A DNA stretch of 35,112 nucleotides from Pyrinomonadaceae bacterium (GTDB taxonomy: Bacteria > Acidobacteriota > Blastocatellia > Pyrinomonadales > Pyrinomonadaceae). A model generated the notes under the pieces. It was given only the letters and a program-made list of their open reading frames with translations. It was not told the origin of the DNA and made no database searches. This document shows positions 1,162 through 34,112 of the stretch, piece by piece. Position 1 is the first letter of the stretch. Each line of letters begins with the position of its first letter. The position numbers and the translations under genes are program-made. The stretch is taken from assembly GCA_035758935.1 (NCBI GenBank), contig DASTVU010000672.1, positions 1 through 35,112 on the forward strand. Direction: 5' to 3'.

Positions 1162-1180
1162 TAAATCTGTGTAATCTGTG
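1162..1180. repeat. Solo arm of the CACAGAT-type repeat family (taaatctgtgtaatctgtg)
   Basis: Same core as the arms at 31766..31814 and 12287..12307. Lies in the divergent spacer between the propeller gene and 1203..1970. Confidence 0.6.
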
Positions 1181-1202
1181 AACTGAAAGGAACCCGACAG
1201 AG

Positions 1203-1970
1203 ATGAAAACAATCTTTCTCCTCCTGGCTTTTGTTTCGTACGCGGCGGCGCAGAATCCCACGCTACAAAAAGACCGCCAGGTTCTATTAGACTTTCGAGT
1301 CGACCGGAAAATTCCCGATATCAGGATTCCAGCCGCGACTCAAAAAAATGTTCTTTCAAAAGTATTTCGCAGATACCTGAGTGACTCGAACCGTTGTAAC
1401 TCCGAAATCGATACCAGCAAAGGCACAGATCCCCTTGCCGAGGCACGCAAAGCCGGACAGATTGTGCCGTTGATTGTCGACATGACGACCGGGAGCTTCA
1501 CAGCCGCAAATCAGACTCAGACTCTGTACGTGATCTCTGTAAGTGAGTGCAACGCTTCTCACGCTGATAACTACGGCACGAAGCGAGTTGCAATCTTCGC
1601 GGGCCAACAAATGGTCGCCGATGTAGACGCTGATTTCGCGAGCAACATCGTGCGTAAGTCCGATCTCAACAGCGACGGCATCGACGAACTATTGATGACC
1701 ACTGGCGACATGGCCCAGGGAACGCTGATTGAGATGGCAACGCTCGTTAGCTTTCAAGGTGGGCGCCGCCGTGTGATTCAAGATTTTGGTTCAGTCGTCG
1801 AGGACTCATGCGCTTCGGAAATGCCGAGCGCCACTTCAGACGCATCAGTGCTTTACATCTCCGACGTCGTTCCCGGAAATATGCCGAAGATCACTCAGGA
1901 GAATTACAGTTCGGGCTGCCGTGGTAAGGCGAGACGCTGGAAACTCGTCTCACGCGGCAAGAGACAATAG
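1203..1970 (+). CDS. Secreted hypothetical protein
   Basis: ORF track. N-terminal MKTIFLLLAFVSYAAAQ looks like a signal peptide. DLNSDGIDELL resembles an FG-GAP/Ca-binding loop. No family recognised. Confidence 0.6.
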   Translation: MKTIFLLLAFVSYAAAQNPTLQKDRQVLLDFRVDRKIPDIRIPAATQKNVLSKVFRRYLSDSNRCNSEIDTSKGTDPLAEARKAGQIVPLIVDMTTGSFTAANQTQTLYVISVSECNASHADNYGTKRVAIFAGQQMVADVDADFASNIVRKSDLNSDGIDELLMTTGDMAQGTLIEMATLVSFQGGRRRVIQDFGSVVEDSCASEMPSATSDASVLYISDVVPGNMPKITQENYSSGCRGKARRWKLVSRGKRQ

Positions 1971-1984
1971 TGATGTTGGATTTT

Positions 1985-2082
1985 CTCTGTGCAACCTCTG
2001 TGTTGTCTGTGTCTCTGTGGTAAATGTTATCCACGAAACTGATCCCCCACAGAGACACAGAGAACACAGAGGTTGCACAGAG
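1985..2082. repeat. Long palindromic element, CACAGAG type (36-nt arms, 26-nt loop)
   Basis: Left arm ctctgtgcaacctctgtgttgtctgtgtctctgtgg (1985..2020). The right arm (2047..2082) is its reverse complement with one mismatch in 36. The right arm ends one base before ATG 2083 and contains the only SD-like AGAGG. Confidence 0.9.
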
Positions 2083-3042
2083 ATGCTTAGTCCTACCTTT
2101 GAAGACGTAATTGCCGCGCGCGAGTTCATCGCGCCGTACTTGCCAAAGACGCCTCTCATCCGCGTAAGAGCACTGTCAGAGCTGCTCGATTGCGACTACT
2201 ACGCAAAGTTGGAAAACCTGCAACCGGTTGGCGCATTCAAGGTGCGCGGCGGCGTAAACCTCGTCGGCACTGCGAGTGATCAGGAACGACGCACAGGCCT
2301 CGTTGCGGCGTCGACCGGGAATCACGGCCAGTCACTCGCATACGCCGGTCGTCTCTTTAGTTGTCGGGTCATCATTTATGCACCTGCCGAGAACGTGAAC
2401 GAATCGAAGATGCAGGCGATTCGCGATCTCGGAGCGGAAGTCAGATATCACGGACGCAATTTTGACGAAGCACGACAGGAATGCGAGCGAGTCGCAGTCG
2501 AGCAAGGGCTTCGTTATGTACATTCGGCAAACGAAACAAAATTGATTGCGGGCGTCGGTACGATTGGACTGGAGATCTTTGAGGATCTCTCAGACGTCGA
2601 CGTCATTATCGCGCCTGCCGGTGGCGGTAGTTGCGCTGCGGGAAATTGCATCGTCACGAATGAGCTCAATCCAAACGTGAAGGTGATCGCAGTTCAATCG
2701 GAGGCAGCGCCCGCGATGTGGCACGCCTGGCGCAACCGATCGCTGGACCCGTATCCAACGATGAACACAGAGCACGAAGGTCTCGCGACGCGCGTGCCTT
2801 TTGAGCTCACAAACAAGATCCTTTGGGAAGTGCTCCACGACTTTACGCTCGTGAGTGATAGTGAGATCAACGACGCTGTGAGGTTGCTTGCGCGTCATGC
2901 AAAGCAAGTCAGCGAAGGAGCAGGAGCGGCTTCCCTCGCTGCCGCGATCAAACTTCGCGATGAGTTGCGCGGAAAGAAAGTTGTTGGCATCGTGTCTGGT
3001 GGAAATCTCCCGCTCGAACGCTTTGCTAAATTAATAGGTTGA
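2083..3042 (+). CDS. Threonine/serine dehydratase-like PLP-dependent enzyme (fold type II)
   Basis: ORF 1786..3042 trimmed to in-frame ATG 2083 (MLSPTFEDVIAAREF), because the upstream part only translates the palindrome. Motifs: ENLQPVGAFKVRGG (Schiff-base Lys context), STGNHGQSLAYA, APAGGGS glycine loop. Confidence 0.85.
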   Translation: MLSPTFEDVIAAREFIAPYLPKTPLIRVRALSELLDCDYYAKLENLQPVGAFKVRGGVNLVGTASDQERRTGLVAASTGNHGQSLAYAGRLFSCRVIIYAPAENVNESKMQAIRDLGAEVRYHGRNFDEARQECERVAVEQGLRYVHSANETKLIAGVGTIGLEIFEDLSDVDVIIAPAGGGSCAAGNCIVTNELNPNVKVIAVQSEAAPAMWHAWRNRSLDPYPTMNTEHEGLATRVPFELTNKILWEVLHDFTLVSDSEINDAVRLLARHAKQVSEGAGAASLAAAIKLRDELRGKKVVGIVSGGNLPLERFAKLIG

Positions 3043-3043
3043 A

Positions 3044-3162
3044 CTTGGAAGGAGTCAGTACCGTAACGCGGTAGCGTCGGGTGAAGTCTTGAGTTTCTAA
3101 GAGCTACTGATGCACTACATTCGACCCGACGCTACCGCGTTACGGTACTGACCGCCTCCAAG
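3044..3162. repeat. Long imperfect inverted repeat (39-nt arms, 41-nt loop); single copy in the window
   Basis: cttggaaggagtcagtaccgtaacgcggtagcgtcgggt (3044..3082) pairs with acccgacgctaccgcgttacggtactgaccgcctccaag (3124..3162), with 3 mismatches. Starts 2 nt after the dehydratase stop and is followed by aaaaagtttt. Confidence 0.85.
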
Positions 3163-3468: not shown

Positions 3469-3486
3469 TCCACAGATTACGCAGAT
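3469..3486. repeat. Solo arm of the CACAGAT-type repeat (tccacagattacgcagat)
   Basis: Matches the arm consensus (t/g)ccacagatta-cacagat. Lies between the stop at 3468 and the amidohydrolase ATG at 3485, overlapping that ATG. Confidence 0.55.
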
Positions 3487-5232: not shown

Positions 5233-6042
5233 TTATTTCAACAAATTCGAAACTTCGAGCACTTGCTCGGGCCTCGCTCGCACCCAGTAGTTTTCAGTCA
5301 GATTGATCCATCGCACCGTGCCCGTTGAATCGACCAGGAACTCTGCCGGGCGTGCGATGTCATGACCATCCTCACCGGCACCCGCATGGACCAGATCGTA
5401 ACGACGAATCACTTCAACGCTCTGATCGGAGAGTAATGGGAAAGTGTAACCTTGTTGCTGCGCGAGATCGCGTGACGCATCAGGAGCATCAACACTGATC
5501 GCAACCGGACGTATGCCCACTTCGCTCAACTTGTCCAAACTTTTTTCAATACCCCGCAACTCGGAGTTGCACAAAGGTCACCAGTAGCCTCGGTAGAAGA
5601 TCAGCAGCACGCCTCTAGGCGCCTTGCCGTTGATCGGCGTGGTCATTAGTTCGTTGAGTGACACCTGCTTGCCTGTGGTATCAGGCAGAGTAAAGTCTGG
5701 CGCTCGCTGACCGACTTGCGGTGCACCTTTCGACGCCGGCAACATGCGTCCGCCAACGAAGTACGCAAAAACAAATAAACCAATCACGAGGACGCCAAAT
5801 GCAGTTACGAGCACGCTGATGATCTTCGAGCGCGTGGGATGCGGGCGATCCGAAGCAAAGCCCCGTCGCAGTCCCACGAACAGCAACACTCCCGCAAGCA
5901 GGAAGAGCAAGAAGTTGGCCCACGGAAAGTCGCGTGTAAGCGGGAACCAGACGAAGATGAAGAAGTAACTCATGAAGGCCGCGACGGTGAGCAGTAAGCC
6001 CACCCAGAGCGGCCAGTTAATGCGTCGTAATATCGTGTCCAT
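5233..6042 (-). CDS. Membrane-anchored peroxiredoxin-like (AhpC/TSA/redoxin family) protein with in-frame TGA at the first redox Cys; candidate selenoprotein (alternatively a pseudogene)
   Basis: ORFs 5578..6042 and 5233..5574 are in the same frame, separated only by TGA (5578..5580). Read-through gives ..APDFTLPDTTGKQVSL..GVLLIFYRGYW-[TGA]-PLCNSELRG..VAISVD..GYTFPLLSD... The family motif is FYRG.WCP.C, so the TGA replaces the first Cys. The M that starts ORF 5233..5574 is really the TTG Leu codon of PLC. The N-terminus has 4 predicted TM helices. Confidence 0.6.
5551..5577 (-). promoter_or_regulatory. Candidate SECIS-like hairpin immediately 3' of the TGA
   Basis: mRNA: UGA CCUUUGUGCAAC UCCGA GUUGCGGGG. 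It forms GCAAC/GUUGC plus a U-G extension, with C/U-G pairs beyond a bulge. The 5-nt apical loop contains a G about 19 nt from the U of UGA. Confidence 0.4.
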
Positions 6043-8265: not shown

Positions 8266-8354
8266 GTCACAAAAAGGCACCTAAAGCACAAAATGATTAC
8301 TTCATTTGGCGCTGTTGCTGAATTATTGTTTTGTGCTTTGTGCCTTTTTGTGGC
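8266..8354. repeat. Palindromic element, GCACAAA type
   Basis: gtcacaaaaaggcacctaaagcacaaaa ... ttgttttgtgctttgtgcctttttgtggc. Lies between convergent stops (8259 and 8371). An extra half unit ttctttgtggct runs to 8372. Confidence 0.85.
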
Positions 8355-8370
8355 GACCTCTTCTTTGTGG

Positions 8371-8835
8371 CTAAGCTCCGCCGCCTGCGGCCATCGCGGC
8401 GAGGCGCTTGTCGATCTCTTCCGGTGAAACATCTTCTTTGTGCGTCGCGACGGTCCAAACGTGACCGAACGGATCCGTCAACGTACCGGAACGATCACCG
8501 TAAAACTGGTCCTGCACAGGCTTCATCTCAGTGCCGCCGGCGGCGATAGCCTGCGGATAGATCGTGTCGACGTCGTCAACGTAGATCATCAGGCTTACGG
8601 GTGTGCCACCGAAAGCTTTTACTCCCTTGAACTGCTCGCTCGCATCGGCGAGCATGAACGGTGAATCGCCAATCTTCATTTCGGCGTGGCCAATCTTTCC
8701 TTCGTGTTCCATGCGAAACAGTTCGACGGCACCGAATGCTTTCTTGTAATACTCCATCGCGTCAGCCGCACCATCGATAACCAAATAGGGCGTTAAAGAG
8801 TGGTATCCCTCCGGAATCGGTTTCACATCTGCCAT
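8371..8835 (-). CDS. VOC (glyoxalase/bleomycin-resistance, PhnB-like) family protein
   Basis: ORF 8371..8907 trimmed to ATG 8835 (MADVKPIPEGYHSLTPYLVIDGAADAMEYYKKAFGA), which has an AAGGGGA SD and removes the overlap with the upstream gene. GHAEMKIGDS..MLAD..DPFGHVWTV are typical motifs. Confidence 0.8.
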   Translation of the reverse strand: MADVKPIPEGYHSLTPYLVIDGAADAMEYYKKAFGAVELFRMEHEGKIGHAEMKIGDSPFMLADASEQFKGVKAFGGTPVSLMIYVDDVDTIYPQAIAAGGTEMKPVQDQFYGDRSGTLTDPFGHVWTVATHKEDVSPEEIDKRLAAMAAGGGA

Positions 8836-8851: not shown

Positions 8852-9715
8852 TTAGTTGAGAGTCTTACTAAGTCTGGAAATTTTTCTGCCGTTGTTTTTG
8901 ACGACAACGAGCGTCATATCGTCGGTGAGCGGGCGCGGCGCCGCAAAATCCTGCACTGCGCCCAGCACTGAAAACAGCACTGCCTCCGCCGACTCGCCCT
9001 GGGCGCGGCGTAACTCGGTTTGGAGTCGCATGTTGCCAAACTCCTGCTCCGCTTCGTTGAATGACTCAAGGATACCATCAGAGCACGCTAATAGCAGATC
9101 GCCGCGCCGTAAACGGACGGTGCCGCAGTCAAACGATGCTTCCGGCACTGCCCCGAGCACTGGTCCACCGTCCGAGAGTAATTCGAGCTGTCCACCTGAA
9201 CGCAGCAACAACGCGGGCGGATGTCCGGCGCTACAGTAATCGAGTTGCTCCGTAATCGAATTGAGTCGAGCAACAAACAAACTGCTTAACGGCTCGATGC
9301 CTGCGAAACGAGCAATGTCGCGATTGACACCGGCGACAATCGTTTCCGGATCGCTGCTCCTCGCGGTATGTGTGCGAATAAGTCCAACCAGATGCGTGAC
9401 CCACATCCCTGCCGCCAACCCTTTGCCGCCGATATCGCCAAGCGCAAGGATCAGACCTTCACTCGTCTCCTCGGCACTAAAGAAGTCACCCGGCAAATGA
9501 CGAACTGCAAAGATCTCACTCGCTACATCGAAACTGCCGTGTCGCACCAGACTCGGTGCGCATAAACGGCGATGCACCTGTGCCGCTTCGAAGATCGCAG
9601 TGTTCAGCTCAGCGTAATCCTGCTGCAGCTTCTCCAATCGTTGTTCGAGCGCGCTGGAGGGCGACACAACTGTAGACTGGGGAGACGACTGGACTCCGAA
9701 TGCTGGGAGAGTCAT
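8852..9715 (-). CDS. PP2C/SpoIIE-family serine phosphatase
   Basis: GDFFSA..LALGDIGGKGLAAG..CSAGHPPALLLR..LLACSDGILES..TDDMTLVVV motifs. N-terminal coiled-coil segment. Confidence 0.85.
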   Translation of the reverse strand: MTLPAFGVQSSPQSTVVSPSSALEQRLEKLQQDYAELNTAIFEAAQVHRRLCAPSLVRHGSFDVASEIFAVRHLPGDFFSAEETSEGLILALGDIGGKGLAAGMWVTHLVGLIRTHTARSSDPETIVAGVNRDIARFAGIEPLSSLFVARLNSITEQLDYCSAGHPPALLLRSGGQLELLSDGGPVLGAVPEASFDCGTVRLRRGDLLLACSDGILESFNEAEQEFGNMRLQTELRRAQGESAEAVLFSVLGAVQDFAAPRPLTDDMTLVVVKNNGRKISRLSKTLN

Positions 9716-9724
9716 AACAGGACC

Positions 9725-10408
9725 TCATCCGACAAACTTATAGCCACTTCCGTGAACGGTAAGAATAAAACGTGGTTCTTCGGGATTCGGTTCGAGCTTT
9801 TGTCTTAAATGAACAATGTGCGTATCGACCGTACGAGTGGTTGGATAATTTTCATATCCCCAAACTGCATCGAGCAGTCGATCACGACTGAGTGTTTCAA
9901 CAGGATGAGCAATGAAATAGGCCAGTAAAGCAAACTCTTTCGCCGAGAGATCGATTACGTTTCCAGCGCGGCGCACTTCGTTGCTGCGAATGTTGACTTC
10001 AACGTCACTGAATTTATAAATCTCCGGAGCCGGCGCCGGTGATGAAGCTCGTCTTAATACGGCCTTAACACGAGCCATCAACTCACGCACTGAAAACGGT
10101 TTGGTAACGTAATCATCAGCACCCAACTCGAGACCGACAACTTTGTCGATCTCCTGACCACGAGCAGTCAGCATGATGATCGGAACTGACGGTCGCTTCG
10201 CCTTCAACTGTTTGCAAACGTCGAGTCCGCTCATGCGCGGCATCATTACGTCCAGCACGACGAGATCCGGATTGTCAGACAGTGCACGATCGAGTCCGCT
10301 CACACCATCTTCAGCGCTGATCACTTCATAACCTTCGTACTCGAAGTTATCGCGCAACCCCGCCACCATCGCCGGCTCATCTTCAACAATTAGAATTTTG
10401 GATTTCAT
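9725..10408 (-). CDS. OmpR/PhoB-family response regulator
   Basis: Receiver (ILIVEDEP..LVVLDVMMP..LTARG..K) plus winged-helix output (LSAKEFALLAYF..TVDTHIVHLRQKLE..I.TVHGSGYKF). Confidence 0.9.
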   Translation of the reverse strand: MKSKILIVEDEPAMVAGLRDNFEYEGYEVISAEDGVSGLDRALSDNPDLVVLDVMMPRMSGLDVCKQLKAKRPSVPIIMLTARGQEIDKVVGLELGADDYVTKPFSVRELMARVKAVLRRASSPAPAPEIYKFSDVEVNIRSNEVRRAGNVIDLSAKEFALLAYFIAHPVETLSRDRLLDAVWGYENYPTTRTVDTHIVHLRQKLEPNPEEPRFILTVHGSGYKFVG

Positions 10409-10426
10409 AATGCCTCGATGTTCTTA

Positions 10427-10493
10427 GCCACAAAAAGGCACAAAGCACACAGGTATGAAGAAAATAATTTGTGTCTTTGTGCTTCTTTGTGGC
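10427..10493. repeat. Palindromic element, GCACAAA type, inside an operon
   Basis: gccacaaaaaggcacaaagcacac ... gtgtctttgtgcttctttgtggc. Fills the kinase-stop to regulator-start spacer. Confidence 0.85.
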
Positions 10494-10496
10494 CAT

Positions 10497-12287
10497 TTAT
10501 GATGTCGACTGTACCAGCGGTAACCAGACAGTGAACTTGCTGCCGCTTCCGGGTGTGCTTTCAACTTCCACGTCGCCGCCGTGAGCCTGTGTTATGTGAC
10601 GCACCAGCGACAATCCGAGGCCGCTGCCCTTCGTGTTATGCACGAGCGGATCGCAGGTTCGATAAAACTTTTCAAAGATTCTCGCTTGCTCGTTTCGTTC
10701 GATGCCGATGCCACGATCGCTAACTTCGAGTTTGAGCACACCCTGATCGCGATAAAGCCTCACACACAGGAATTTTTCACTGTCGGAATACTTCAATGCA
10801 TTGTTAACCAGATTAACAAGCGCACGCGCGATCGCTTCGCGATCGACTTTCACTGCGGGAATACCGGGATCGATCTGCTCCTCGAGCGCAAATCCCTGCT
10901 GCTCGATCTGATAACGATAGGAGTCGAGCGTGTTGCGCACGAGCTCGGCGATGTCAGTCTCACGGAAGTCGTATTCCTTGCGACCTGCCTCAATTCGAGA
11001 GAAATCGAGAATGTTGTTGATTAGCGCGCTAAGCCGTTCACTCTCTTTGCGAATGATGCCGTAATACTCGTTCTTTTTTTCCGGCGTCGTGATGCGACCG
11101 AGTTCGAGTGTCTCGGCATAAAGTCGAATCAGAGCGAGTGGTGTTCGCAACTCGTGCGAGACGTTGGAAACAAAGTCAGACTTCAAACGCGCGAGGGCGA
11201 CTTGTTTGTTAACACTGCGATACGTCAAAACTAATCCACCGATCATCAAAACTGACAACACACCAAGAATCAAAAAACTCTGCCACACCCACTTCTGCCC
11301 GATTGCCTGCGCCGTGGTACCCTGAAACTTGATGCCTAACGCGAGACCGCGGAAAGGGTTATCAAGGTTGAGCGAAACCTCAGGCTTGCCGCCATTCCAT
11401 CCTGTAGACGTTGCAAAAGGCCGCTCGGGCTCTGCTTTTAAGGCATCGGACGGAAAAACCAACATGGCCAGGCGTTGTTCCTTGTGCTCTTTCAGTCCTT
11501 GTGAAGTTAACTCGTAAAAGGTTCGACCCTCACTATTTCCCGGATCGTCAGTAAGTTCTGGTGATGTGAATTCCCCCAGCAGTTCCGGAAAAAATTTTTG
11601 TCTCAAATAGTTTGGATCGAAGCTCACGCCTCCCAACACAGTGCGATCCTTGCTGAGCTGCGGAAATGCGAAGAGTGCAGTCGTAGAGTAGACAGAAGAA
11701 CCGTCTGGTCCATCAAGTTCTCCGCTATACCACATAATGGGCTTGGGCTTCTTGCATAACTGTTCCACCATGGATCGACCGTCAAGCTCCAACCACCCGC
11801 CGTACATTTTGGTCAAATTGGCGAGCTCTTTTTCGTCATTGTGCTCACGTTGCTGCTGAACTATCGCTCCCTTTTTAGCCTCAAATAGAAAGGCGTGTGC
11901 AAACCAGGGGCTCTTGTCCAGAATAAGACCGAGCTTTCGTCGCTTCTCATCGTCCGAGTCGGAATCAGATGGAAAAGCACCCATCGCCTGTTCGGTCATC
12001 TCGTAGGCTTTGCCGCTAATCTTCTTCGCGGAATTCGAGAGCAAGTACTGAAAGTCGCGATGAATCAGAGCTTCGACTTTCTTGTCACGCTGGATCGATT
12101 TAACGTGCTGAAAGTTAACGAAGATGAGAGTCAAGGCAGGCAGGACGACGGCCAATCCGAGCGTAAGAACGAGACGAAAACGAGTGTTGGTTTCTCTTCT
12201 CGACTTCATTGCGGCCAGAGGATACGCCTGAGCAGCCGGGGCTATGTCAAGCTCAGGTAAAAATTTGTTAAGAGTTGTGAACTCCAT
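10497..12287 (-). CDS. Membrane sensor histidine kinase
   Basis: Two TM segments flank a periplasmic domain of about 290 aa. H-box FVSNVSHELRTPLALI. N, G1 and G2 boxes (NLVNNALKYS, DRGIGI, GSGLGLSLV). The start is uncertain: ATG 12287 directly abuts a repeat arm, and in-frame ATG 12209 (MKSRRETN) is an alternative. Confidence 0.85.
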   Translation of the reverse strand: MEFTTLNKFLPELDIAPAAQAYPLAAMKSRRETNTRFRLVLTLGLAVVLPALTLIFVNFQHVKSIQRDKKVEALIHRDFQYLLSNSAKKISGKAYEMTEQAMGAFPSDSDSDDEKRRKLGLILDKSPWFAHAFLFEAKKGAIVQQQREHNDEKELANLTKMYGGWLELDGRSMVEQLCKKPKPIMWYSGELDGPDGSSVYSTTALFAFPQLSKDRTVLGGVSFDPNYLRQKFFPELLGEFTSPELTDDPGNSEGRTFYELTSQGLKEHKEQRLAMLVFPSDALKAEPERPFATSTGWNGGKPEVSLNLDNPFRGLALGIKFQGTTAQAIGQKWVWQSFLILGVLSVLMIGGLVLTYRSVNKQVALARLKSDFVSNVSHELRTPLALIRLYAETLELGRITTPEKKNEYYGIIRKESERLSALINNILDFSRIEAGRKEYDFRETDIAELVRNTLDSYRYQIEQQGFALEEQIDPGIPAVKVDREAIARALVNLVNNALKYSDSEKFLCVRLYRDQGVLKLEVSDRGIGIERNEQARIFEKFYRTCDPLVHNTKGSGLGLSLVRHITQAHGGDVEVESTPGSGSKFTVWLPLVQSTS

Positions 12288-12916: not shown

Positions 12917-12922
12917 AAGAAT

Positions 12923-17279: not shown

Positions 17280-17308
17280 TTTTGTGCTTTTTTGTGCCTC
17301 TTTGCGCC
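17280..17308. repeat. Solo arm of the GCACAAA-type repeat (ttttgtgcttttttgtgcctctttgcgcc)
   Basis: Matches the right-arm consensus tttgtgc-tttttgtgcc. No partner arm nearby. Confidence 0.55.
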
Positions 17309-23692: not shown

Positions 23693-23797
23693 TAGCGAAT
23701 CGATTCGATCCTCATTCAGTCGCGGAGTGAGGGTGGACCTAAATTTGCCAACGGTGAATTTTGTGCGGTCCCGTGGTCAAAGAGGGAGTCTGTGTGC

Positions 23798-24010: not shown

Positions 24011-24021
24011 CTTTCGGGTCG

Positions 24022-24098
24022 GGCAACGGCAGCTTCAAGGCTACTGAAGTTGCCGTTGTCATGACTCATCGTTTCTGTGCGGAGTCTAACGATGAGTG
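24022..24098 (+). terminator. Two consecutive strong hairpins (possible terminator or structured element)
   Basis: gggcaacggcagcttca aggctac tgaagttgccgttgtc (24022..24061), then actcatcgtt tctgtgcggagtct aacgatgagt (24065..24098, 10-bp perfect stem). No clear U tract. Confidence 0.35.
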
Positions 24099-24344
24099 CA
24101 ACGAGAGCCAAACCCTCGCAAGACAAAGCTTCATCTCCTACGGAATTTTTCCGGCATTCTTGGTCGCCTCTTGGATACGCGTTGGCGATGAACAGTGATC
24201 TTGCCGTTGAGGCAGTGTTTTGAATTCTGCCTGAACAAGGGGTGATTGGTAGCGTATAAATTGAGTGAATTTTGTTCCTTTGGTGTGCCCGTGAAGCAGA
24301 ATCGATTTGGAACCCTTAAGAAAGTCTCCGGTAGATTGAGACAA

Positions 24345-24776
24345 ATGTGGCTCGGTAAAGACGAGAAGTCTGCAGAACTGCCAATGCCTCGCCTGCTAGT
24401 CGTCGACGATGAAGAGTCAATTTGTTTTTCGATGAGCGAGTACTTTTCGTTGCAGGGTTACAAAGTCGATACCGCTTGTGAAGTAGAAGAAGCTGAGAAA
24501 CTCCTTGGGGCCACAAACTACAAAGTCGTAATCCAGGATCTCCGCCTCACGATGACCAACAATCGTGATGGTCTCGAAATGATCCGGCTGATTAGGGAAC
24601 ACAACCCGCAGACTCGTATCATCGTCTTAACCGCCTACGGTTCTGCCGAAATCGAAGATGAAGCACGACGTTGCGGCGCCGATGCATTTCTCAGGAAACC
24701 GAAACCCCTCTCACAGGTCGCCCAGGTTGTTCAGGGCCTGCTCGAATCCCCCTCAAGAACTGCCCGCCACGCTTAG
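24345..24776 (+). CDS. Stand-alone response-regulator receiver protein
   Basis: ORF 24246..24776 trimmed to ATG 24345 (alternative ATG 24384, MPRLLVVDDEE). Acidic pocket DDEE, phospho-acceptor context VVIQDLRL, LTAYG, RKP. Confidence 0.8.
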   Translation: MWLGKDEKSAELPMPRLLVVDDEESICFSMSEYFSLQGYKVDTACEVEEAEKLLGATNYKVVIQDLRLTMTNNRDGLEMIRLIREHNPQTRIIVLTAYGSAEIEDEARRCGADAFLRKPKPLSQVAQVVQGLLESPSRTARHA

Positions 24777-24778
24777 TC

Positions 24779-24885
24779 GCCACAAAAAGGCACAAAAAGC
24801 ACATAAAGGTTTTTCCGAGATTTGCTGAGGGACTGGTCTTCTCTGCTGTTTAAATATTTTGTGTTTTTTGGTGCCTTTTTGTGGC
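24779..24885. repeat. Palindromic element, GCACAAA type (56-nt loop)
   Basis: gccacaaaaaggcacaaaaagcaca (24779..24803) against tgtgttttttggtgcctttttgtggc (24860..24885). Lies between convergent stops; its last base is the first base of the dnaE2 stop codon. Confidence 0.85.
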
Positions 24886-27800
24886 TAATGAAAGTCGTGG
24901 GAAGGTGCGGCGGCTACCGCGAATGAGAGTGGCTGCACATGGCTGGCTTTTACCGAAATAACATTATCCTGATTTTGCAGATCTCCTTCGATCAAGAGAA
25001 ACGGGTGGCCTACCAGTTCAAACCGGTACTTCTCGAACAGTTGCGGAGTGACGATGATGTTGCTCACACCTGTCTCGTCCTCGAGACTCAGGAACATGAA
25101 TCCCTTCGCGGTACCCGGTCGCTGACGAACGATGACCCATCCAGCTACTTTCACAAAAGTACCATTGCGCAACTTCCGGATGTCGATTGCCCGCAGCGCC
25201 TTGAGCTTTTTCAACTCTCCACGATGATAAGCAACCGGATGTTTTCCGATCGTCAACCCTGTCCCGCGGAAATCAGCGTCCACTCGTTCAGTTAACGTCA
25301 TCTGGTGCAGCGGTGAATTGTCATCTTTTTCGAGTAACTCTTCGTATAGTTCGCCGGCCGCGCGCGTCACCCGCTCAACCTGCCACAGCGCATCGCGACG
25401 TGTAGACGTTTGAATAAAATTCAACGCGCCAACAGCAGCCAGTTTTCGCAACTCATCTCTACGCAACCACGGCACGCGATTGTGCAAATCGTCGATACCA
25501 ACGAACGCTCCAGACGCCCGCTCGTGAACAATTGCCTCGCCCGCTTGCTGGCTCAAACCTCGGACGTATCTCAACCCGAGACGGACTGCGAGTGTGGAGT
25601 CTACCTGCTTCTCGATCGTGCAGAGCCATTCAGAGCAGGTAATGTCGATCGGCAGAACCTTCAACCCGTGACGTTGCGCATCTTTAATGATGGTGAATGG
25701 CTGATAAAACCCCATCGGTTGGTTGTTGAGAATCGCGGCTGTGAATGCTGCCAGGTAGTTACATTTAAGATAGGCGCTGGCATAAGCGATCAAAGCAAAA
25801 CTGGCCGCATGCGACTCCGGAAAACCGTAAAGCGCAAACGAGCTGATCGCGAGGACGATCTCTTCCTGCGTCTTTCCCGTGATCCCATTTTTCGTCAGTC
25901 CCTGCCGCAGTTTCACTTCAATCATTTTCATGCGCGCTTCCGAACGTTTGAAACCAAACGCGCGGCGTAATTCTTCGGCCTCGCCTCCGGTAAAGCCGGC
26001 GCAGACCATGGCCATCCGCAGGAGTTGTTCCTGAAACAACGGTATTCCAAGGGTGCGTTTTAAGATGGGCTCCAGCGCAGGATGAGCATAAGTCGCCGGT
26101 TCCCTGCCCTGCCGGCGTTTGAGATAAGGATGGACCATGTTGCCGACGATTGGGCCCGGCCGAATAATTGCCACCTGGACCACGATGTCGTAGAAGTTTG
26201 TTGGTCGCAGTCGTGGCAGACACGACATCTGCGCACGGCTTTCAACCTGAAACATTCCGATCGTGTCGGCCTTTTGCAGCGCTTCATAAACTGCCGGGTC
26301 GTGTTGTGGCAGATGGGCCAGCTCAACTTCTTCGTCGTACGACTCGCGAATCAACTTGATCGAATCTTCCAGCACCGCCATCATTCCCAGTCCCAGCAAG
26401 TCGACCTTGATCAATCCCAGGTCCGCACAATCTTCTTTGTCCCATTGGACCACAACGCGACCGGGCATCGCGGCGGGCTCGAGCGGCACGACGGAATCGA
26501 GCGCTCCCTGGCAAATCACCATGCCGCCTGAATGCTGGCCCAGGTGTCGCGGTAGATCCTGTACCAGTTGATAAAGCTGGAAGAATTTTTTGATTCGCGG
26601 CTGGCGTATATCCAGACCTGCATCACGGAACTGCCGCTCGCTGGAATCGTTTGGATCTTTCCATTCCCAGGTATGGACGAGGGCCGACAGACGCGAAAGC
26701 GTGTCTTCGTCAAAGTCGAGCGCTTTTCCGACTTCGCGCGCCGCTGAACGTCCTCGATAAGTGATGACATTGGCGGTCATCGCAGCTCCCAGTTTTCCGT
26801 AGCGCTCGTAAACGTATTGAATTGCCTGCTCGCGTTTATCTCCGCTCGGCAAATCTAGATCGATGTCGGGCCATTCGCCTCTCTCTTCCGAAAGAAACCG
26901 TTCAAACAAAAGATCCATGCCGATCGGATCAACGGCAGTGATTCCCAGCGAATAACAGACAGCGCTATTTGCCGCCGAACCGCGTCCCTGAACCAGAATT
27001 CCATGGCGATTGCAGAACTTAACGATGTCCCAAACGATCAGGAAATAACCTTCCAGCTTGAGTTTTTCGATCAAGGCCAGCTCACGTTCGAGTTGAGGCC
27101 GCGCCTTTTCGTAAGTAGGCATGCCGTGCGTGCCGGTGTAGCGTGCGCGCGCGCCTTCTTCCGTGCGCTTGCGTAGAAAGGAGGTCATCGTTTCGCCACG
27201 TGGCACAGGGTATTTGGGAAACTCATAACCGAGATCTTCGAGCGTAAACTTCAGTCGCGAGGAGAGTTCAACAGTATTGGCAATCGCTTCAGGAAGATCC
27301 GCGAAGAGTTGCTCCATCATCGCGCCTGACTTCAGATGTCGTTCTGAGTTTTGTGCGAGCAGACGTCCGGCAGTTTCCAGTCGCACGTGATTGCGAATAC
27401 AGGTGAAGACGTCAGACACTTCCCGGCGTGACCGTGTCGCATAACAAACGCCGTTAGTGGCGAGTAACGGTAGATGATTGCGCCTGGCAAGCTCGATTAC
27501 CAGATGATTGCGGGCTTCCTCCTCGCGATCCAGATGCCGCTGCAGTTCCGCATACACATTTTTTTTGCCAAACAGTTCAACGAGCCAATCGATCTCGCTC
27601 TGTGCTTTAGTAGTGTTTTCCGCATCTCTGGGATTGATGGCAGTCGCAATTGGTCCATCAAAGCTTCCAGTCAAACAGATCAAACCTTTGGCGTGTGCGG
27701 CCAACTCGCCAGACGTGACTGTGCATTCACCGGGCTTTGCGTGTTTCGGCACACGCAATTTCATCAACGTGATGAGTCGACAGAGATTCTGATAACCGGT

Positions 27801-28064
27801 GCGGTTACGGACGAGGACGGGAATGGAGCAGATGCCTCGTGCGCCTGGTTTTTGAACGCTTATCTCGGCCCCGATATGCGCCTGGATGCCGTTCCTTTTT
27901 GCAGAAAGGTGAAATCGCGGTGCGCCATAAACTCCATCGCGGTCCAGCAAAGCCATCGCCGGCATCTCTAACTCGAGACCGGCAGCAATCAACTCTTCAG
28001 GCACCGAGGCGCCCTCGAGAAAACTAAAAGCCGACCGCGCATGTAGCTCAACGTAGGTGGACAT
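24885..28064 (-). CDS. dnaE2: Error-prone DNA polymerase DnaE2 (Pol III alpha paralogue)
   Basis: ORF 24885..28160 trimmed to ATG 28064 (MSTYVELHARSAFSFLEGASVPEEL, the canonical PHP-domain opening); the 32 extra codons translate the intergenic palindrome. About 1059 aa. Follows imuA and imuB. Confidence 0.95.
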   Translation of the reverse strand: MSTYVELHARSAFSFLEGASVPEELIAAGLELEMPAMALLDRDGVYGAPRFHLSAKRNGIQAHIGAEISVQKPGARGICSIPVLVRNRTGYQNLCRLITLMKLRVPKHAKPGECTVTSGELAAHAKGLICLTGSFDGPIATAINPRDAENTTKAQSEIDWLVELFGKKNVYAELQRHLDREEEARNHLVIELARRNHLPLLATNGVCYATRSRREVSDVFTCIRNHVRLETAGRLLAQNSERHLKSGAMMEQLFADLPEAIANTVELSSRLKFTLEDLGYEFPKYPVPRGETMTSFLRKRTEEGARARYTGTHGMPTYEKARPQLERELALIEKLKLEGYFLIVWDIVKFCNRHGILVQGRGSAANSAVCYSLGITAVDPIGMDLLFERFLSEERGEWPDIDLDLPSGDKREQAIQYVYERYGKLGAAMTANVITYRGRSAAREVGKALDFDEDTLSRLSALVHTWEWKDPNDSSERQFRDAGLDIRQPRIKKFFQLYQLVQDLPRHLGQHSGGMVICQGALDSVVPLEPAAMPGRVVVQWDKEDCADLGLIKVDLLGLGMMAVLEDSIKLIRESYDEEVELAHLPQHDPAVYEALQKADTIGMFQVESRAQMSCLPRLRPTNFYDIVVQVAIIRPGPIVGNMVHPYLKRRQGREPATYAHPALEPILKRTLGIPLFQEQLLRMAMVCAGFTGGEAEELRRAFGFKRSEARMKMIEVKLRQGLTKNGITGKTQEEIVLAISSFALYGFPESHAASFALIAYASAYLKCNYLAAFTAAILNNQPMGFYQPFTIIKDAQRHGLKVLPIDITCSEWLCTIEKQVDSTLAVRLGLRYVRGLSQQAGEAIVHERASGAFVGIDDLHNRVPWLRRDELRKLAAVGALNFIQTSTRRDALWQVERVTRAAGELYEELLEKDDNSPLHQMTLTERVDADFRGTGLTIGKHPVAYHRGELKKLKALRAIDIRKLRNGTFVKVAGWVIVRQRPGTAKGFMFLSLEDETGVSNIIVTPQLFEKYRFELVGHPFLLIEGDLQNQDNVISVKASHVQPLSFAVAAAPSHDFH

Positions 28065-28071
28065 TTGTACT

Positions 28072-28160
28072 TTGAGCTTGGTGCTTTGTTCTTTGTACTT
28101 TGTGTTTTGTACTTGGGGCATCACTAATACAAAGAACAAAGTACAAAGCACCAAGCTCAA
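28072..28160. repeat. Palindromic element, GTACAAA type, filling the imuB-dnaE2 spacer
   Basis: ttgagcttggtgctttgt (28072..28089) is the exact complement of acaaagcaccaagctcaa (28143..28160). Inner tttgttc/tttgtac units are permuted. The right arm overlaps the imuB stop (28157..28159); the left arm ends 8 nt before the dnaE2 ATG. Confidence 0.85.
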
Positions 28161-29455
28161 TCATAGTTTCCCTCGACAAACCAGTGCTCGGTATTCAACT
28201 CGCGATAGATGCGATAGAGAGTTCGGTGGCCCTGGCGCTCGAGCGTTACGTCCCATTCGTCTCGGGACCAACTATCGTCGCGCCACCAATCACCGGTTGT
28301 TCTCCATGGACCAGCGAGGGCGACGACTTTCCCGTAGACACTGCGTTGCTTGCCCCAGGCGCTGATCTGTGTGGGCCAACCCTGATCGGCTTCAACGATT
28401 GCCTTCAATGGCGGACGATAGCGGCGAAAGCCAAGGCATTGCTGATTGCCAATTGCCGATTGCCGCCTGGCTTTTGTCTGCAACGTGAAACGTTTCATGC
28501 TGAACGCATCCGGCCGGTGTGTATCGAGCAACACGGGTGAACCGACATTTTGCTCGCCCACGAGTTTTGCGAGTCTCGCGAGGGTCAGTTCCAGCTTGTC
28601 GGGCGCCGGCGCAAGCGGCACAAACAGTCCGTTCTGCAACACACGCGGTTTCACCGGTTCACAGGCAATTGCAACTGACGTGACGGCTGCCGCCGGTGGG
28701 TGCATTTCAGTGTCGAGCAACAACAACTTCAGAAACACTTTGTGATCGCGCATCGGGTGAGGCAAAGACAATTTGCGTTCGTGGACGGTCTGATTTTCCA
28801 GTTGCAGAGTCACGCATAGTTCATTCGTCGCGAGGGCATAAGCATTCAGCGCGGCGCAGAGTTGATGCAACAGTCGCGCAAAAATAAATGAGAGCGGCTC
28901 GAGTTCACTAAGGGCGTGATCGAGCTCGATCGAATTTGCAAAAACAGGTGGGGGTTGTTTGACCTGCAAATGTCGCTCGGTTTTGCCGGCAGCGAGTTGC
29001 TGAAGTTTTATTCCCTCTTGTCCCAGGCGTTCAGAAACGCCCGTAACCGGGAGTGCGGCAAAGTCAGCAAAGGTGCGAATGCCCCAGAGCCGCAGTGTTT
29101 CCAGAATCTGATCGGCGATTTTTTTCTCGACCTTAATCAGCGAGTAGTCGAGGTGCTCGATAGGAAACTCTCCGAGGCAGGTCAACTCCTCGCCCGGATA
29201 GACAAAGGTTATTCCTTTCAGGTGAGTGGCGGCATGGATTGCGGCATCCGGATTTGCAGCCAGGGCCACGCTGACCGGAGTTTCCGCGCGCTGAACGACT
29301 TCACTGGCGAGTTGGTAAGGAGAGCCAAATAACAACTCGCATCCTTCTACATCGATTACAACCGTCCCCTTCCCAATCTCTTCCACGATGGGTGAAAAGC
29401 CGTAAGCGAATTCCGCTAAAGAAACATCAACCGGAGAATGGATACAGGCAAACAT
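28157..29455 (-). CDS. imuB: ImuB (catalytically inactive Y-family polymerase-like mutasome subunit)
   Basis: MFACIHSP..VVIDVEGCELLFG opening. Y-family-like N-terminal half. Positioned between imuA and dnaE2. Confidence 0.9.
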   Translation of the reverse strand: MFACIHSPVDVSLAEFAYGFSPIVEEIGKGTVVIDVEGCELLFGSPYQLASEVVQRAETPVSVALAANPDAAIHAATHLKGITFVYPGEELTCLGEFPIEHLDYSLIKVEKKIADQILETLRLWGIRTFADFAALPVTGVSERLGQEGIKLQQLAAGKTERHLQVKQPPPVFANSIELDHALSELEPLSFIFARLLHQLCAALNAYALATNELCVTLQLENQTVHERKLSLPHPMRDHKVFLKLLLLDTEMHPPAAAVTSVAIACEPVKPRVLQNGLFVPLAPAPDKLELTLARLAKLVGEQNVGSPVLLDTHRPDAFSMKRFTLQTKARRQSAIGNQQCLGFRRYRPPLKAIVEADQGWPTQISAWGKQRSVYGKVVALAGPWRTTGDWWRDDSWSRDEWDVTLERQGHRTLYRIYRELNTEHWFVEGNYD

Positions 29456-30869: not shown

Positions 30870-31050
30870 CTCTTCTTCCCGCGCCGTGGCTTTAGCCCGG
30901 TGGTGGTGTTCAGTTGCCCTATCCAGAAGGGATTCAAAATCCGGACGATGAGGGGCCAACTGATCACCGGGCTAGGGTCACGGCGCGCGACGCGAACCGA
31001 GGCCGTAATGGTCTCCCCCGCATCACTGCGCCTCGGCTCTAAAAAACTAC

Positions 31051-32116: not shown

Positions 32117-33033
32117 TCTGCGCCGGAAGAAGCCGTAACGACTTCTTCGCTACGTTCTTTCTGCTTAGCTTTGCGCACAACGATGAAGCCGATCCCCAGC
32201 ATGATCATTGCTCCGCCGGCGAGAGTGCGCCAGCCGAACTCTTCGTCGAGGACAATCATGCCGAGAATAACTGCTACCACTGGGGTCACTAACGCAATCA
32301 TCATTGACTTCGTGACGTCCATGTTCTGAACTAACCAGTAGTAAAGCAAAAACGCGATCACTGAGCCGACGATCGCCAGATACAACATCGCGACTACAGC
32401 GATTGGCGTCCAGTGGATTCGAAAAGGATTTCCCTCGAGCGGAATGCCGACAGCCAGCAGCAACAACAGACCAAAGAACATCTGACCGGCGCTGAGCACT
32501 GCTGGATTGAGATGTTTCCCGTATGCCTTCACCAGCACATTCGAATAAGCCGCGAACATCGCACTCAGAATCAACGCCACACAACCCGCTAGCGCCCGGG
32601 TTCCTGACACTGTAAGTTGATTCGAAAAAACCACGCCTACACCAAACACACCCAGTACGACTCCAAAGATCTTGGTCCAACTCAAACGCTCTGCCGGGAG
32701 ATGGAAGTGCGCAAAGACAAGTCCGAACGCGGGAAGCGTCGCTTGTAACAACGCAGCGAGACCCGAAGTGATGTACTGCTCTCCCCAGAATACGAGGCCG
32801 TAGTTGAACCCGAACGCAAGAATTCCGCTGATCGCGAGCAGAATCCAGTCGTTACGTGCTCGAGGCAGTGAAATTTGGCGAATGCGGATTAAAGAAAAAA
32901 GGATGGTGCAGGCAATAACGAATCTGATGCCTGCGAAAGTTATGGGAGGCAGGTCAGCGAGACCGAGCTTGATAAACAGCCAGGTCGAGCCCCAGATACC
33001 ACAGAGGATTAACCAGACAAGGCGAGCCTTCAT
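32113..33033 (-). CDS. EamA/DMT family transporter
   Basis: 10 TM helices in two EamA repeats. Opening CGIWGSTWLFIKLGL is typical. Confidence 0.9.
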   Translation of the reverse strand: MKARLVWLILCGIWGSTWLFIKLGLADLPPITFAGIRFVIACTILFSLIRIRQISLPRARNDWILLAISGILAFGFNYGLVFWGEQYITSGLAALLQATLPAFGLVFAHFHLPAERLSWTKIFGVVLGVFGVGVVFSNQLTVSGTRALAGCVALILSAMFAAYSNVLVKAYGKHLNPAVLSAGQMFFGLLLLLAVGIPLEGNPFRIHWTPIAVVAMLYLAIVGSVIAFLLYYWLVQNMDVTKSMMIALVTPVVAVILGMIVLDEEFGWRTLAGGAMIMLGIGFIVVRKAKQKERSEEVVTASSGAD

Positions 33034-33042
33034 CGATCATTT

Positions 33043-33101
33043 CCAATTGCCGATTGCCAATCTCGTTTCCAATTGGCAATCGGCATTTGGCAATTGGCAA
33101 T
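33043..33101. repeat. Palindromic element, ATTGCC type
   Basis: ccaattgccgattgccaa (33043..33060) against aattggcaatcggcatttggcaattggcaatg (33071..33101). Lies between the VOC stop and the EamA start. Confidence 0.85.
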
Positions 33102-33104
33102 GAA

Positions 33105-33908
33105 TTAGCCGTGTGGTTGCGTCTTGATAATCGCGAACGCAGCACCCTGTGGATCAATCAGGATCGCAAAGCGTCCGACACCGGGAATATCGTCGGCCGG
33201 CTTCATGACTTGTGCTCCGAGCTCGGTGGCCTTTTGAACCGAGGCGTCGCAGTCATCGACTGAAAAGTACACCAGCCAGTGTGGCGGAACGGGTCCCATT
33301 TCGGGCATAAGCTTGTACACCCCACCAATTCCCGCACCGTCATTCAGGAAGAGGGTGTATGGGATAGGACTGTCACCGAAAGGTTGTCTGGTCCAGCCAA
33401 ACACGTTCGAATAAAACTCACCGGCTTTTTCCGGATCGTTTGTGCCGAGTTCGCTCCAGGTGGCAGCACCGGGCACTCCCCAGACTTCCGATCCTTTGTT
33501 ATCCATGGCTTGCCAAACCGCAAAAACGGCGTCGGTCGGGTCCTTAATAACGGCCATTCGGCCATAGGTAGCTACGTCGAATGGACCATTCATCACGGTT
33601 GCACCTTCGGCCTTTGCTTTTTCAACTTTCTCATCTGCGTCGGTAACCGCGACATAAGTCAACCAGTTAGGTGGGACTCCCTGCTCAACCATGTCGGGCA
33701 TCAACTTGTAAAGCCCACCGACATCTTTGCCATCGAGCTTCAGCATCGTGTAGACCATGTCTGGGCCCATCGGGTTGTCTTGAAACTCCCAACCAAAGAG
33801 TTGTGAGTAAAAACTTTTCGCGGCATCGGTATCGCTGGTGCTGAGTTCCACCCAACAAAAATTTCCGGGCTTGATTTCGGGGGTCTCTTGCATTCTTGCT
33901 TCGGTCAT
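33105..33908 (-). CDS. Two-domain VOC (glyoxalase/dioxygenase superfamily) protein
   Basis: Two tandem repeats of F.WVEL.T.D...A..FY...FGW........Y.......G...GG......P..W..Y..V.D. Confidence 0.85.
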   Translation of the reverse strand: MTEARMQETPEIKPGNFCWVELSTSDTDAAKSFYSQLFGWEFQDNPMGPDMVYTMLKLDGKDVGGLYKLMPDMVEQGVPPNWLTYVAVTDADEKVEKAKAEGATVMNGPFDVATYGRMAVIKDPTDAVFAVWQAMDNKGSEVWGVPGAATWSELGTNDPEKAGEFYSNVFGWTRQPFGDSPIPYTLFLNDGAGIGGVYKLMPEMGPVPPHWLVYFSVDDCDASVQKATELGAQVMKPADDIPGVGRFAILIDPQGAAFAIIKTQPHG

Positions 33909-34047
33909 TTCAATTAATCCCTCCTATCGTCGGACAAGTACATTGAGGCGCTTTTCAGCGACGTGGAAAACGGGGAGAAACTTTTTTCTGATTTTGGAAA
34001 GCGGATAATTTATCACTTTAGAGCGCGGCAAGAAAGGCAGGAAGAAA

Positions 34048-34112
34048 AGCCACGGATTTCACGGATGAACACAGATAAAACCATCCGTGTTCATCCGTGA
34101 AAATCCGTGGCT
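34048..34112. repeat. Palindromic element, CACGGAT type
   Basis: agccacggatttcacggatgaacac (34048..34072) against gtgttcatccgtgaaaatccgtggct (34087..34112). Arms differ by a single-T indel. Confidence 0.9.

Follow-up and report, generated by a model that had tools for sequence, protein, structure and literature searches.

The window analysed here (35,112 bp, ~53% G+C) is a stretch of Pyrinomonadaceae DNA (GenBank GCA_035758935.1, contig DASTVU010000672.1) of soil origin, with 98% of its sampled words found in one soil metagenome run and with ImuB homologues of 78–97% identity that are annotated as Pyrinomonadaceae. Its genes, which include a PALP gene, histidine kinase and response regulator genes, lexA, imuB and dnaE2, are separated by spacers containing long palindromes built from reiterated 7-nt units (Table 1), and at other loci arms of the same type enclose a small gene of the GxxExxY family. 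Using a repeat finder and a separate ungapped scan (arms of at least 16 nt and at least 80% complementary, loops of up to 120 nt), we find 13 inverted-repeat clusters in the 35 kb, compared with a mean of 0.2 and a maximum of one in 30 dinucleotide-preserving shuffles, and all 13 are intergenic on a gene map built on Pfam hits. The sequence CACRGAT-N3-CACRGAT occurs nine times in the window against an expectation of 0.05. By manual gene mapping, about nine palindromes lie between co-directional genes (including a histidine kinase–response regulator pair and imuB–dnaE2), three between convergent genes and none between divergent genes. Of the four solo arms (at 1162, 3469, 12287 and 17280), three are within divergent spacers, and several elements touch stop or start codons.

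A sequence-only reading of this DNA had described at least 13 long inverted repeats of several families, dispersed through the spacers in the manner of repetitive extragenic palindromic (REP) sequences or bacterial interspersed mosaic elements, in three settings (convergent, co-directional and inside operons) and with no transposase gene in the window. All of this is borne out: an element is present at every coordinate that it listed, the palindromes have a conserved terminal motif GCCAC...GTGGC, and domain searches find no transposase among the window open reading frames (ORFs). Its range of loop lengths, 9 to 56 nt, is corrected to 6–50 nt for the unit-built elements in gapped alignment; with the ungapped core of the element at 24779 the loop reaches 67 nt. 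There are no tRNAs in the window, Rfam searches with the palindromes (E ≤ 1) return only spurious miRNA-hairpin matches, and literature searches by sequence words and topic find no description of these repeats. Likenesses by eye to DnaA boxes, parS, and IHF and CsrA sites were dropped because they fit few copies or one family only. The hairpin at 22948, which had been listed with the others, is a real structure but belongs to no dispersed family; it is 94–98% identical in the same spacer of six relatives, and is probably a local functional structure separate from the dispersed repeats.

The arms are built on a common plan. Each is a phased array in which a 7-nt core, for example CACRGAT, is repeated two to four times, usually with a period of 10 nt, and has the conserved sequence (T)TAGCCAC at its outer end; adjacent units are spaced by 10 nt in 295 cases, 9 nt in 42 and 11 nt in 22, counts to which the search pattern itself contributes some bias. 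The exact 19-mer GCCACRGATTTACACRGAT occurs in at least 119 stretches of species-representative genomes, compared with ~17 expected by chance in 596 Gb, at loci ranging from 32 to 63% G+C, and the motif that these loci have in common extends to tTTAGCCACRGAT-TTA-CACRGAT-GAA-CACRGAT. Among the matches listed are Pyrinomonadaceae, Terriglobia and Chloracidobacterium; Udaeobacter and other Chthoniobacterales matches; Scalindua and Pirellulales; Gallionella, Methylobacter, Burkholderiales, an alphaproteobacterial chromosome and a Rudaea isolate; Flavobacterium, Chitinophaga, Winogradskyella and Balneolaceae; and Chloroflexota, Omnitrophota, Cloacimonadota, Calditrichia, Latescibacterota, WOR-3, Aerophobetes and Desulfobacterales. 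Many further families on the same plan are present in these loci (with cores such as CACGAAT, CACGAAGAT, CGCGGAT, ACAGGAT, GCGCAAAG and CGCGAAT). The 19-mer motif is also found in 15 viral contigs, and a BLAST search of plasmids gives four unannotated matches, in Skermanella, Bacteroides finegoldii and Ca. Thiodictyon. Viral scans with GCACAAA and CACAGAG arms reveal gene-less copies only, and the viral CACAGAG arms have CCAC on the outside, unlike the 'inside-out' CACAGAG and TTTGTAC elements of the window in which CCAC lies by the loop. Loops in Pyrinomonadaceae are locus-specific or very diverged; in Methylococcaceae and one alphaproteobacterium the core is conserved between copies as well.

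These palindromic elements turn over quickly. Metagenome contig depth rises 20–40-fold in bins that hold palindromes, and homology breaks off abruptly at arm ends (2021, 2047, 2083, 3468, 5155, 12286, 24779, 24888, 31766 and 31815), with tens of unrelated flanks at these breaks per metagenome run. In a ~97.5% identical strain (runs X3, X4 and X7) the 83-nt element of 3 + 3 units at 15147 is replaced by the 35-nt TAGAAGAAACCTCGCCACAGATCCGTGGCTAAATT with 1 + 1 units. We compared orthologous regions from eight genomes (ImuB identities of 97, 95, 91, 87, 86, 83, 80 and 79%; loci fetched for comparison carry L numbers), in which palindromes occur at 0.15–0.37 per kb, and genomes 78–97% identical in ImuB have different families, nested copies, solo arms or nothing in the same spacer. 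The imuB–dnaE2 spacer has a unit-built palindrome or arm in nine of nine genomes, but the families differ: TTTGTAC in the window and L138, a GCACAAA palindrome in L135, L136, L139 and L142 with a single arm in L137, a CACAGAG palindrome in L140 with arms near-identical to those of window 1984–2083, and in L141 a 476-nt version with ~14 tandem heptamers and a second palindrome nested within it. In L141, too, near-identical arms are present at a locus other than that of window 1984–2083, and L137 and L139 have tandem loop repeats of 27 nt. The glyoxalase–EamA spacer has an ATTGCC palindrome, the remnant of one with a CACAGAT palindrome nested inside, or a GCACAAA palindrome, and from genome to genome the lexA spacer and the spacer past a non-coding RNA gene (34126–34625) vary between palindromes, solo arms and no element at all. 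This comparison of orthologous spacers, which the sequence-only reading had suggested, therefore finds presence, absence and replacement polymorphism between strains.

A search for inverted arms a few hundred bases apart reveals, in another Pyrinomonadaceae locus (L038), the arrangement TTTTAGCCACAGATTTACACAGAT... – 139-aa ORF – ...ATCTGTGCAAATCTGTGGCTAAAA, and the ORF encodes a GxxExxY protein (TIGR04256, E = 1e-40; PF13366 PDDEXK_3, E = 1e-40). Two more homologues in the fetched loci are bracketed by other unit arrays (CACGAAAA in L051, GCCAAGG in L109), and in L063 CACAGAT arms surround what is left of a decayed GxxExxY gene. An unbiased sample of the family was taken as the best 80 of 582 relatives from metagenome contigs, of which 68 loci have both flanks, and in ~55 of these 68 an inverted pair of phased arrays is seen by eye beside the ORF. 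The median alignment score of a gene's own arm pair is 40.5 compared with 19.7 for mismatched pairs, a control that is inflated because different loci have unit families in common. Units occur at 13.9 per kb in the 200 nt adjoining the gene, at 2.9–3.8 per kb farther out and at 2.5 per kb inside it, a four- to five-fold enrichment, and their orientation is biased by ~4:1 (144 forward and 37 reverse upstream; 151 reverse and 44 forward downstream), indicating that the gene lies inside one palindrome rather than between two. Nuclease clade and unit type vary together: proteins whose genes are flanked by one unit class resemble each other more than they resemble the rest (identity 0.613 compared with 0.538, a value reached in none of 2,000 permutations).

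The complete arm–gene–arm element is ~430–680 bp long and encodes a product of ~125–140 aa, and gene-less copies outnumber gene-bearing ones by ~50–100 to 1 in our sample. Gene-bearing copies in six loci (L038, L143, L208, L219, L241 and L242) have arms of the CACRGAT type that match arms in the window. The L038-type gene is at the same site, between hexapeptide transferase and oxidase genes, in L038, L143 and L241; the L038 and L143 copies have 84% DNA identity and share the layout F-gene-F'-loop-R, where a second forward arm stands between the gene and the loop. A 77%-identical gene with CACAGAT arms is located inside the arginine-biosynthesis (argG) operon of L242.

In addition, inverted arms 0.3–4 kb apart were inspected for an enclosed transposase and mostly enclose ordinary genes, including those for an acyl-CoA dehydrogenase, a permease, a phage capsid-like protein and a TniB-like ATPase. 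In L231–L240 (gene 1501–1881 in L231) the GxxExxY gene overlaps the end of a large type IIG restriction-modification-like gene (DUF559, MmeI_Mtase, Eco57I) and lies upstream of an AlbA_2/Schlafen-type ATPase gene, a defence-island-like context with no flanking arrays. An identical GxxExxY protein on many contigs was considered as a source of target sites, and proved to be one locus beside a restriction-modification-like gene sampled repeatedly. A 128-aa ORF of L125 (1048–1501) lies inside a 19-nt inverted repeat (AGTCCTCCTTTGAAGGGGG) and by eye resembles DUF559/Vsr-like endonucleases; if it is a true nuclease, it would be a second small nuclease gene within a palindrome.

The GxxExxY protein is predicted to belong to the PD-(D/E)XK-fold nucleases. 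An AlphaFold2 model (pLDDT 87) matches alkaline exonuclease, Cas4 SSO0001, MGME1, I-Bth0305I and Hjc with modest template modelling (TM) scores of 0.3–0.5, and residues E95 and K97 (E95-x-K97) are invariant with D85 nearly so. There is no sequence match in the PDB and no corresponding family in PADLOC or PHROGs. Clustering at 50% identity gives 24,213 clusters (E ≤ 1e-3), which makes this a large family, and proteins at least 80% identical are present in different proteobacterial classes (Methylobacter, Herminiimonas, Undibacterium, Gallionella, Sulfuriferula and a deltaproteobacterium). PF13366 is listed as of unknown function with 'multiple transfers' in a survey of PD-(D/E)XK proteins (PMC3424549); beyond that statement our literature searches found one incidental mention of GxxExxY and no paper linking PF13366/GxxExxY to repeats.

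Because the same arms are common to the window and to the copies that bracket GxxExxY genes, the window palindromes are best read as gene-less miniature derivatives of small selfish GxxExxY arm–gene–arm elements, an interpretation that we consider on balance probable. The link between arms and gene is direct for CACRGAT-like arms, and for the GCACAAA, CACAGAG, ATTGCC and TTTGTAC families we only infer it. The selfish element is apparently widespread and undescribed, and there is a fair chance that it represents a new class of mobile element.

Several observations weigh against this interpretation. Neither the window nor ~150 kb from its closest relatives contains a GxxExxY gene, and none of the 80 sampled loci contains a gene-bearing copy with GCACAAA (A-tract), ATTGCC, TTTGTAC or inside-out CACAGAG arms; for these families, only related cores are seen beside a gene (CACAAAT in L152, CACGAAAA in L051, CGCAAAA in L161 and CACAGAA in L203). 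Some GxxExxY genes lie outside palindromes, such as P0326, which overlaps a type IIG restriction-modification-like gene. The shared site in L038, L143 and L241 indicates vertical inheritance of the copy at that locus. Host phylogeny is a confounder of the co-variation between protein clade and unit class. The strain comparisons yield no clean pair of empty and filled sites and hence no target-site duplication, and the TA/TTA...TAA flank belongs to the palindrome itself. Finally, to our knowledge no PD-(D/E)XK nuclease is established as a transposase in its own right.

[quoted passage not shown] Loss of the gene would leave an arm–loop–arm palindrome, and the layout of L038 and L143 suggests that recombination between the two forward arms could be one route. 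Unit number would alter by slippage, and the hairpin potential would be a by-product of the inverted ends, with any effects on mRNA being secondary. We also raise, tentatively and as something short of an even chance, the possibility that the GxxExxY protein is the enzyme of a pan-bacterial class of mobile elements not previously recognised. This small nuclease would have phased heptamer arrays as its target and would, alone or with host repair, move or copy pairs of arms between loci and phyla, with or without its own gene, so that palindromes would come to be sown in numerous spacers of many environmental bacteria.

Alternatively, the nuclease gene could be a secondary invader that homes into the loops of palindromes spread by other means, a parasite rather than a mobiliser for which the arms provide both recognition site and repair homology. 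We think this unlikely, although nested insertions are usually in loops (as in the glyoxalase–EamA spacer of L135 and L140, and in L141), the F-gene-F'-loop-R arrangement of L038 and L143 resembles a cassette beside a complete palindrome, and gene-less copies are far more numerous than gene-bearing ones. The predicted fold is similar, among others, to that of the PD-(D/E)XK homing endonuclease I-Bth0305I (TM ~0.3–0.4), and both systems have a small selfish nuclease gene; however, homing endonucleases copy themselves into one cognate allele and are not accompanied by thousands of gene-less palindromes, and our own case is made from sequence and a structural model. The co-variation of clade and unit class is compatible with either direction and hence not decisive, and an invader would not account for the dispersal of same-armed gene-less palindromes across loci and phyla.

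A second explanation, which we regard as improbable, is that the palindromes are functional RNA hairpins (terminators, 3'-end stabilisers or RNase III sites) maintained by selection on pairing, as proposed for REPs; selection on hairpin formation was also the conclusion of the sequence-only reading. Every full palindrome in the window is downstream of a stop codon with none in divergent spacers (manual map), 47 of 57 periodic-arm palindromes across all fetched loci lie no more than 100 nt from a long ORF's stop codon, and stems of 20–37 bp would suit RNase III. The figure of 47 of 57 is roughly as predicted from intergenic placement alone, because divergent spacers make up only ~22%; outside the window, an avoidance of divergent spacers is not demonstrable with crude ORF calls. 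Arms of the dnaE2/response-regulator GCACAAA element drift independently across seven genomes, the complementarity of a copy's own arms being 0.87 compared with 0.876 for left and right arms of different genomes, so that compensatory evolution is not seen; the neighbouring non-coding RNA, used as a positive control, does have compensatory pairs. Within window families a copy's own arms are slightly more alike than those of different copies (0.91 compared with 0.83 for CACRGAT; 0.84–0.87 for three GCACAAA copies compared with 0.81), and the earlier statement that arms co-vary within copies but differ between them thus holds mostly as a difference between families, with a small margin within them. 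Transition mismatches in the stems of all fetched loci, read on the inferred sense strand, comprise 43 G.U and 56 A.C, and in other genomes the heptamers are common to both arms while the 3-nt spacers between units are often non-complementary.

Nor do the unit-built palindromes have the features of intrinsic terminators, a G+C-rich stem followed by a U tract, and by inspection none has a T tail. A terminator scan gives clear sites at 15611–15639 and 34135–34166 and none at a unit-built palindrome, but it accepts only 3–8-nt loops, so that most palindromes are beyond its reach, and its calls overall are at chance level. In soil metatranscriptomes the contig depth at the palindrome 34048–34110, which stands behind an efficient terminator, is ~0 compared with up to millions just upstream. 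Considering arm drift, mismatch counts, spacers, terminator features and RNA depth together, selection for pairing at the RNA level is not detectable, and the same spacer in close relatives has other families or none.

It is very unlikely that these are ordinary REP or REPIN elements moved by a RAYT (an HUH Y1 transposase) encoded elsewhere in the genome. REPINs are REP doublets associated with domesticated HUH Y1 transposases (Bertels & Rainey 2011, PMC3116915; Di Nocera et al. 2013, PMC3733652), and the window elements are likewise high-copy, short, extragenic inverted pairs with the potential for long hairpins (the 35 kb contain 13 clusters, and each metagenome run has tens of contigs that share arms), accompanied by decayed singlets and with several families per genome. 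In both systems a small nuclease-type gene is flanked by repeats in inverted orientation and repeat and protein types co-vary, and RAYT-like 'TIRYT' genes with long inverted repeats have been reported in Acidobacteria (PMC3733652). However, the window arms are not self-palindromic units of 20–40 nt with an unpaired tag: single arms such as GCCACAGATTTACACGGAT are not self-complementary but are phased arrays of 7-nt cores, the GTAG/CGTC tag is absent, and the conserved GCCAC pairs with GTGGC of the other arm. REP families are mostly species- or genus-specific, whereas these arm sequences are cross-phylum, and the density here is ~1 per 2–3 kb. A crude regular-expression scan for HUH...Y motifs in six-frame translations of ~1 Mb of repeat-bearing loci is negative, and the gene found between such arms at other loci has a predicted PD-(D/E)XK rather than HUH/Y1 fold. 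The search for a mobilising gene that the sequence-only reading proposed thus points to a GxxExxY nuclease, and not a RAYT, as the likely partner. Purely local formation, in which slippage builds the arrays, template switching (quasi-palindrome correction) matches the arms and similarity is convergent, is also very unlikely: unit number does vary by strain (3 + 3 and 1 + 1 at 15147), tandem expansions occur (L141 has ~14 heptamers, and the loops of L137 and L139 contain 27-nt repeats) and inter-arm mismatches are mostly transitions at variable unit positions, but 37-nt arms with the same irregular spacers are present at unrelated loci (window 1984, L140 and L141), the cross-phylum 19-mer is far in excess of chance, and homology breaks abruptly at arm ends in dozens of contigs.

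As miniature derivatives of GxxExxY elements, the palindromes would be similar in organisation to MITEs derived from insertion sequences, such as the Correia elements of Neisseria. Both have terminal inverted repeats around a short, variable, non-coding core, are high-copy and intergenic including inside operons, and have a longer gene-bearing relative with the same ends (here for the CACRGAT type only). They differ in that here the gene encodes a PD-(D/E)XK-fold protein and no recognised transposase, no target-site duplication is evident, the ends are made of reiterated units, and the Pyrinomonadaceae loops show little or no similarity from one locus to another. Reiterated 7-nt intergenic units that cross phyla, with some arrays at start codons, are also known as the TAACTGA heptamer repeats of Beggiatoaceae, Cyanobacteria and Bacteroidetes, whose patchy distribution has 'no evident mechanism' (MacGregor 2015, PMC4679880), and as the cyanobacterial short tandemly repeated repetitive (STRR) sequences; these are direct arrays rather than inverted pairs, have other cores, and no associated gene is reported.

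Table 1. Palindromes, solo arms and the non-dispersed hairpin of the window, with observations on individual copies.
Coordinates	Element	Arms and units	Location	Observations
1162..1185	Solo arm, CACAGAT family	+ strand reads AAATCTGTGTAATCTGTGAAC	Divergent spacer, 18 nt before ATG of gene 1203–1970	Metagenome contigs show arm-only homology
1984–2020/2047–2083	CACAGAG-family palindrome	37-nt arms (36/37), 26-nt loop	Spacer of gene 1203–1970 and PALP gene	Inside-out topology, CCAC adjoining loop; last bases overlap PALP ATG; dozens of metagenome contigs have the arms alone in common
3469..3485	Solo arm	TCCACAGATTACGCAGAT	Adjoins amidohydrolase gene start codon	Homology ends abruptly at 3468 in 18–37 contigs per run
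5154–5184/5198–5228	GCACAAA-family palindrome	31-nt arms (27/31)	Between two minus-strand genes	Metagenome depth spike
8268–8293/8329–8352 (element 8266..8354)	GCACAAA-family palindrome	Arms differ by an indel	Convergent spacer	Additional CTTTGTGGC repeat follows at ~8363–8371
10427–10451/10470–10493	GCACAAA-family palindrome		Histidine-kinase stop codon to response-regulator start codon	
12287..12310	Solo arm	CCACAGATTACACAGATTT	Divergent spacer, directly at kinase start codon (CAT/CCACAG)	Homology ends at 12286 in 11–35 contigs per run
12918–12944/12958–12985	CACRGAT-family palindrome	TTAGCCACAGATTTACACGGAT / ...GTGGCTAA	Convergent spacer	Absent from related-strain contig (run X3), which skips 12911–12990
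15147–15166/15193–15212	CACRGAT-family palindrome	3 + 3 units	Between cupin and MatE genes	
17280..17308	Solo arm, GCACAAA family	TTTTGTGCTTTTTTGTGCCTCTTTGCGCC	Divergent spacer	Metagenome contigs join 5181/5185 to 17288/17291
22948–22988	Hairpin, non-dispersed	Perfect 16 bp	Between two PEP-CTERM genes	
24767–24806/24857–24900	GCACAAA-family palindrome		Between convergent response-regulator and dnaE2 genes	Kept at orthologous site in 7/9 genomes; loop changes through tandem duplication
28072–28106/28126–28160	TTTGTAC/TACAAAG-family palindrome	35-nt arms (32/35), inside-out	Fills imuB–dnaE2 spacer	Stem contains imuB TGA stop codon
31766–31785/31795–31814	CACAGAT-family palindrome	20/20, 2-nt inter-unit spacer	Directly after lexA stop codon	Present in 13–28 contigs per run with unrelated flanks
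33039–33061/33072–33094 (element 33029..33104)	ATTGCC-heptamer palindrome		Between glyoxalase and EamA genes	In L135 and L140 down to one unit per side, with CACAGAT palindrome nested in loop
34047–34076/34083–34113	CACGGAT-family palindrome	3 + 3 units, 6-nt loop	Next to terminator of abundant non-coding RNA, on its downstream side	

The non-coding RNA mentioned above is ~440–500 nt long and is encoded on the minus strand (34126–34625) between a HIT gene and the palindrome 34047–34113, with a sigma70-like promoter (TTGATC-17-TATAAC) and a canonical terminator (34126–34175). It is highly conserved in six orthologous loci and abundant in four soil/rhizosphere metatranscriptomes (summed contig depth up to millions; 9,000–29,000 contigs at least 90% alike). 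Of the 163 pairs in the RNAalifold prediction, seven show compensatory changes (for example in the helix at alignment columns 302–319), and there is no Rfam match even at E ≤ 10, making it a candidate new large structured RNA. Elsewhere, two 'AhpC/TSA' ORFs on the minus strand (5233–6042) are one membrane-anchored redoxin gene with an in-frame TGA (5578–5580) at the first Cys of the redox motif (...FYRGYW-TGA-PLC...), followed by a small hairpin GCAACTCCGAGTTGC; judged on these features it is probably a selenocysteine (UxxC) protein with a bacterial selenocysteine insertion sequence element.

Three other kinds of inverted repeat are also present. A G+C-rich palindrome family with 39–43-nt arms (GTCAGTACCGTAACGCGGTAGCGTCGGGT), which is not unit-built, is found in the window (3044–3162), L141 (3092–3268, three tandem copies), L139 (3–122) and L103 (7872–7958), and is high-copy in metagenomes, where it gives a depth spike. 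An inverted repeat between a uracil-DNA glycosylase-family gene and lexA (30877–30990; arms ~19–26 nt, ~62 nt apart) is present in all relatives checked (L138 8441–8540, L140 8400–8499, L141 8003–8106, L142 8389–8497) and may be a regulatory site of the lexA/imuA-imuB-dnaE2 region. A cross-taxon palindrome family (...GTCATCCCGAGCGAAG...GGACC...) is shared by Acidobacteriota and Chthoniobacterales loci (L018 6649–6739, L074 2957–3042, L120 677–782, L028 1483–1580 and 3719–3783, and L036 771–882).

The repeat sequence of the unit-built palindromes recurs in Acidobacteriota, Verrucomicrobiota, Planctomycetota, Proteobacteria, Bacteroidota and Chloroflexota, as well as in several candidate phyla. 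These repeats produce spurious small ORFs (ICVNLWL, TDYTD and FVPFV-like peptides), may add to the short contigs seen with the GxxExxY gene family, and may process or insulate operon transcripts. If the palindromes do derive from GxxExxY elements, this would account for the repeats that occupy many Pyrinomonadaceae spacers, and would add a second type of enzyme to the pattern seen with REPINs and RAYTs or MITEs and insertion sequences, in which a gene-bearing element is found amid many miniatures. It would also provide the first testable role for a very large family of proteins without an assigned function.

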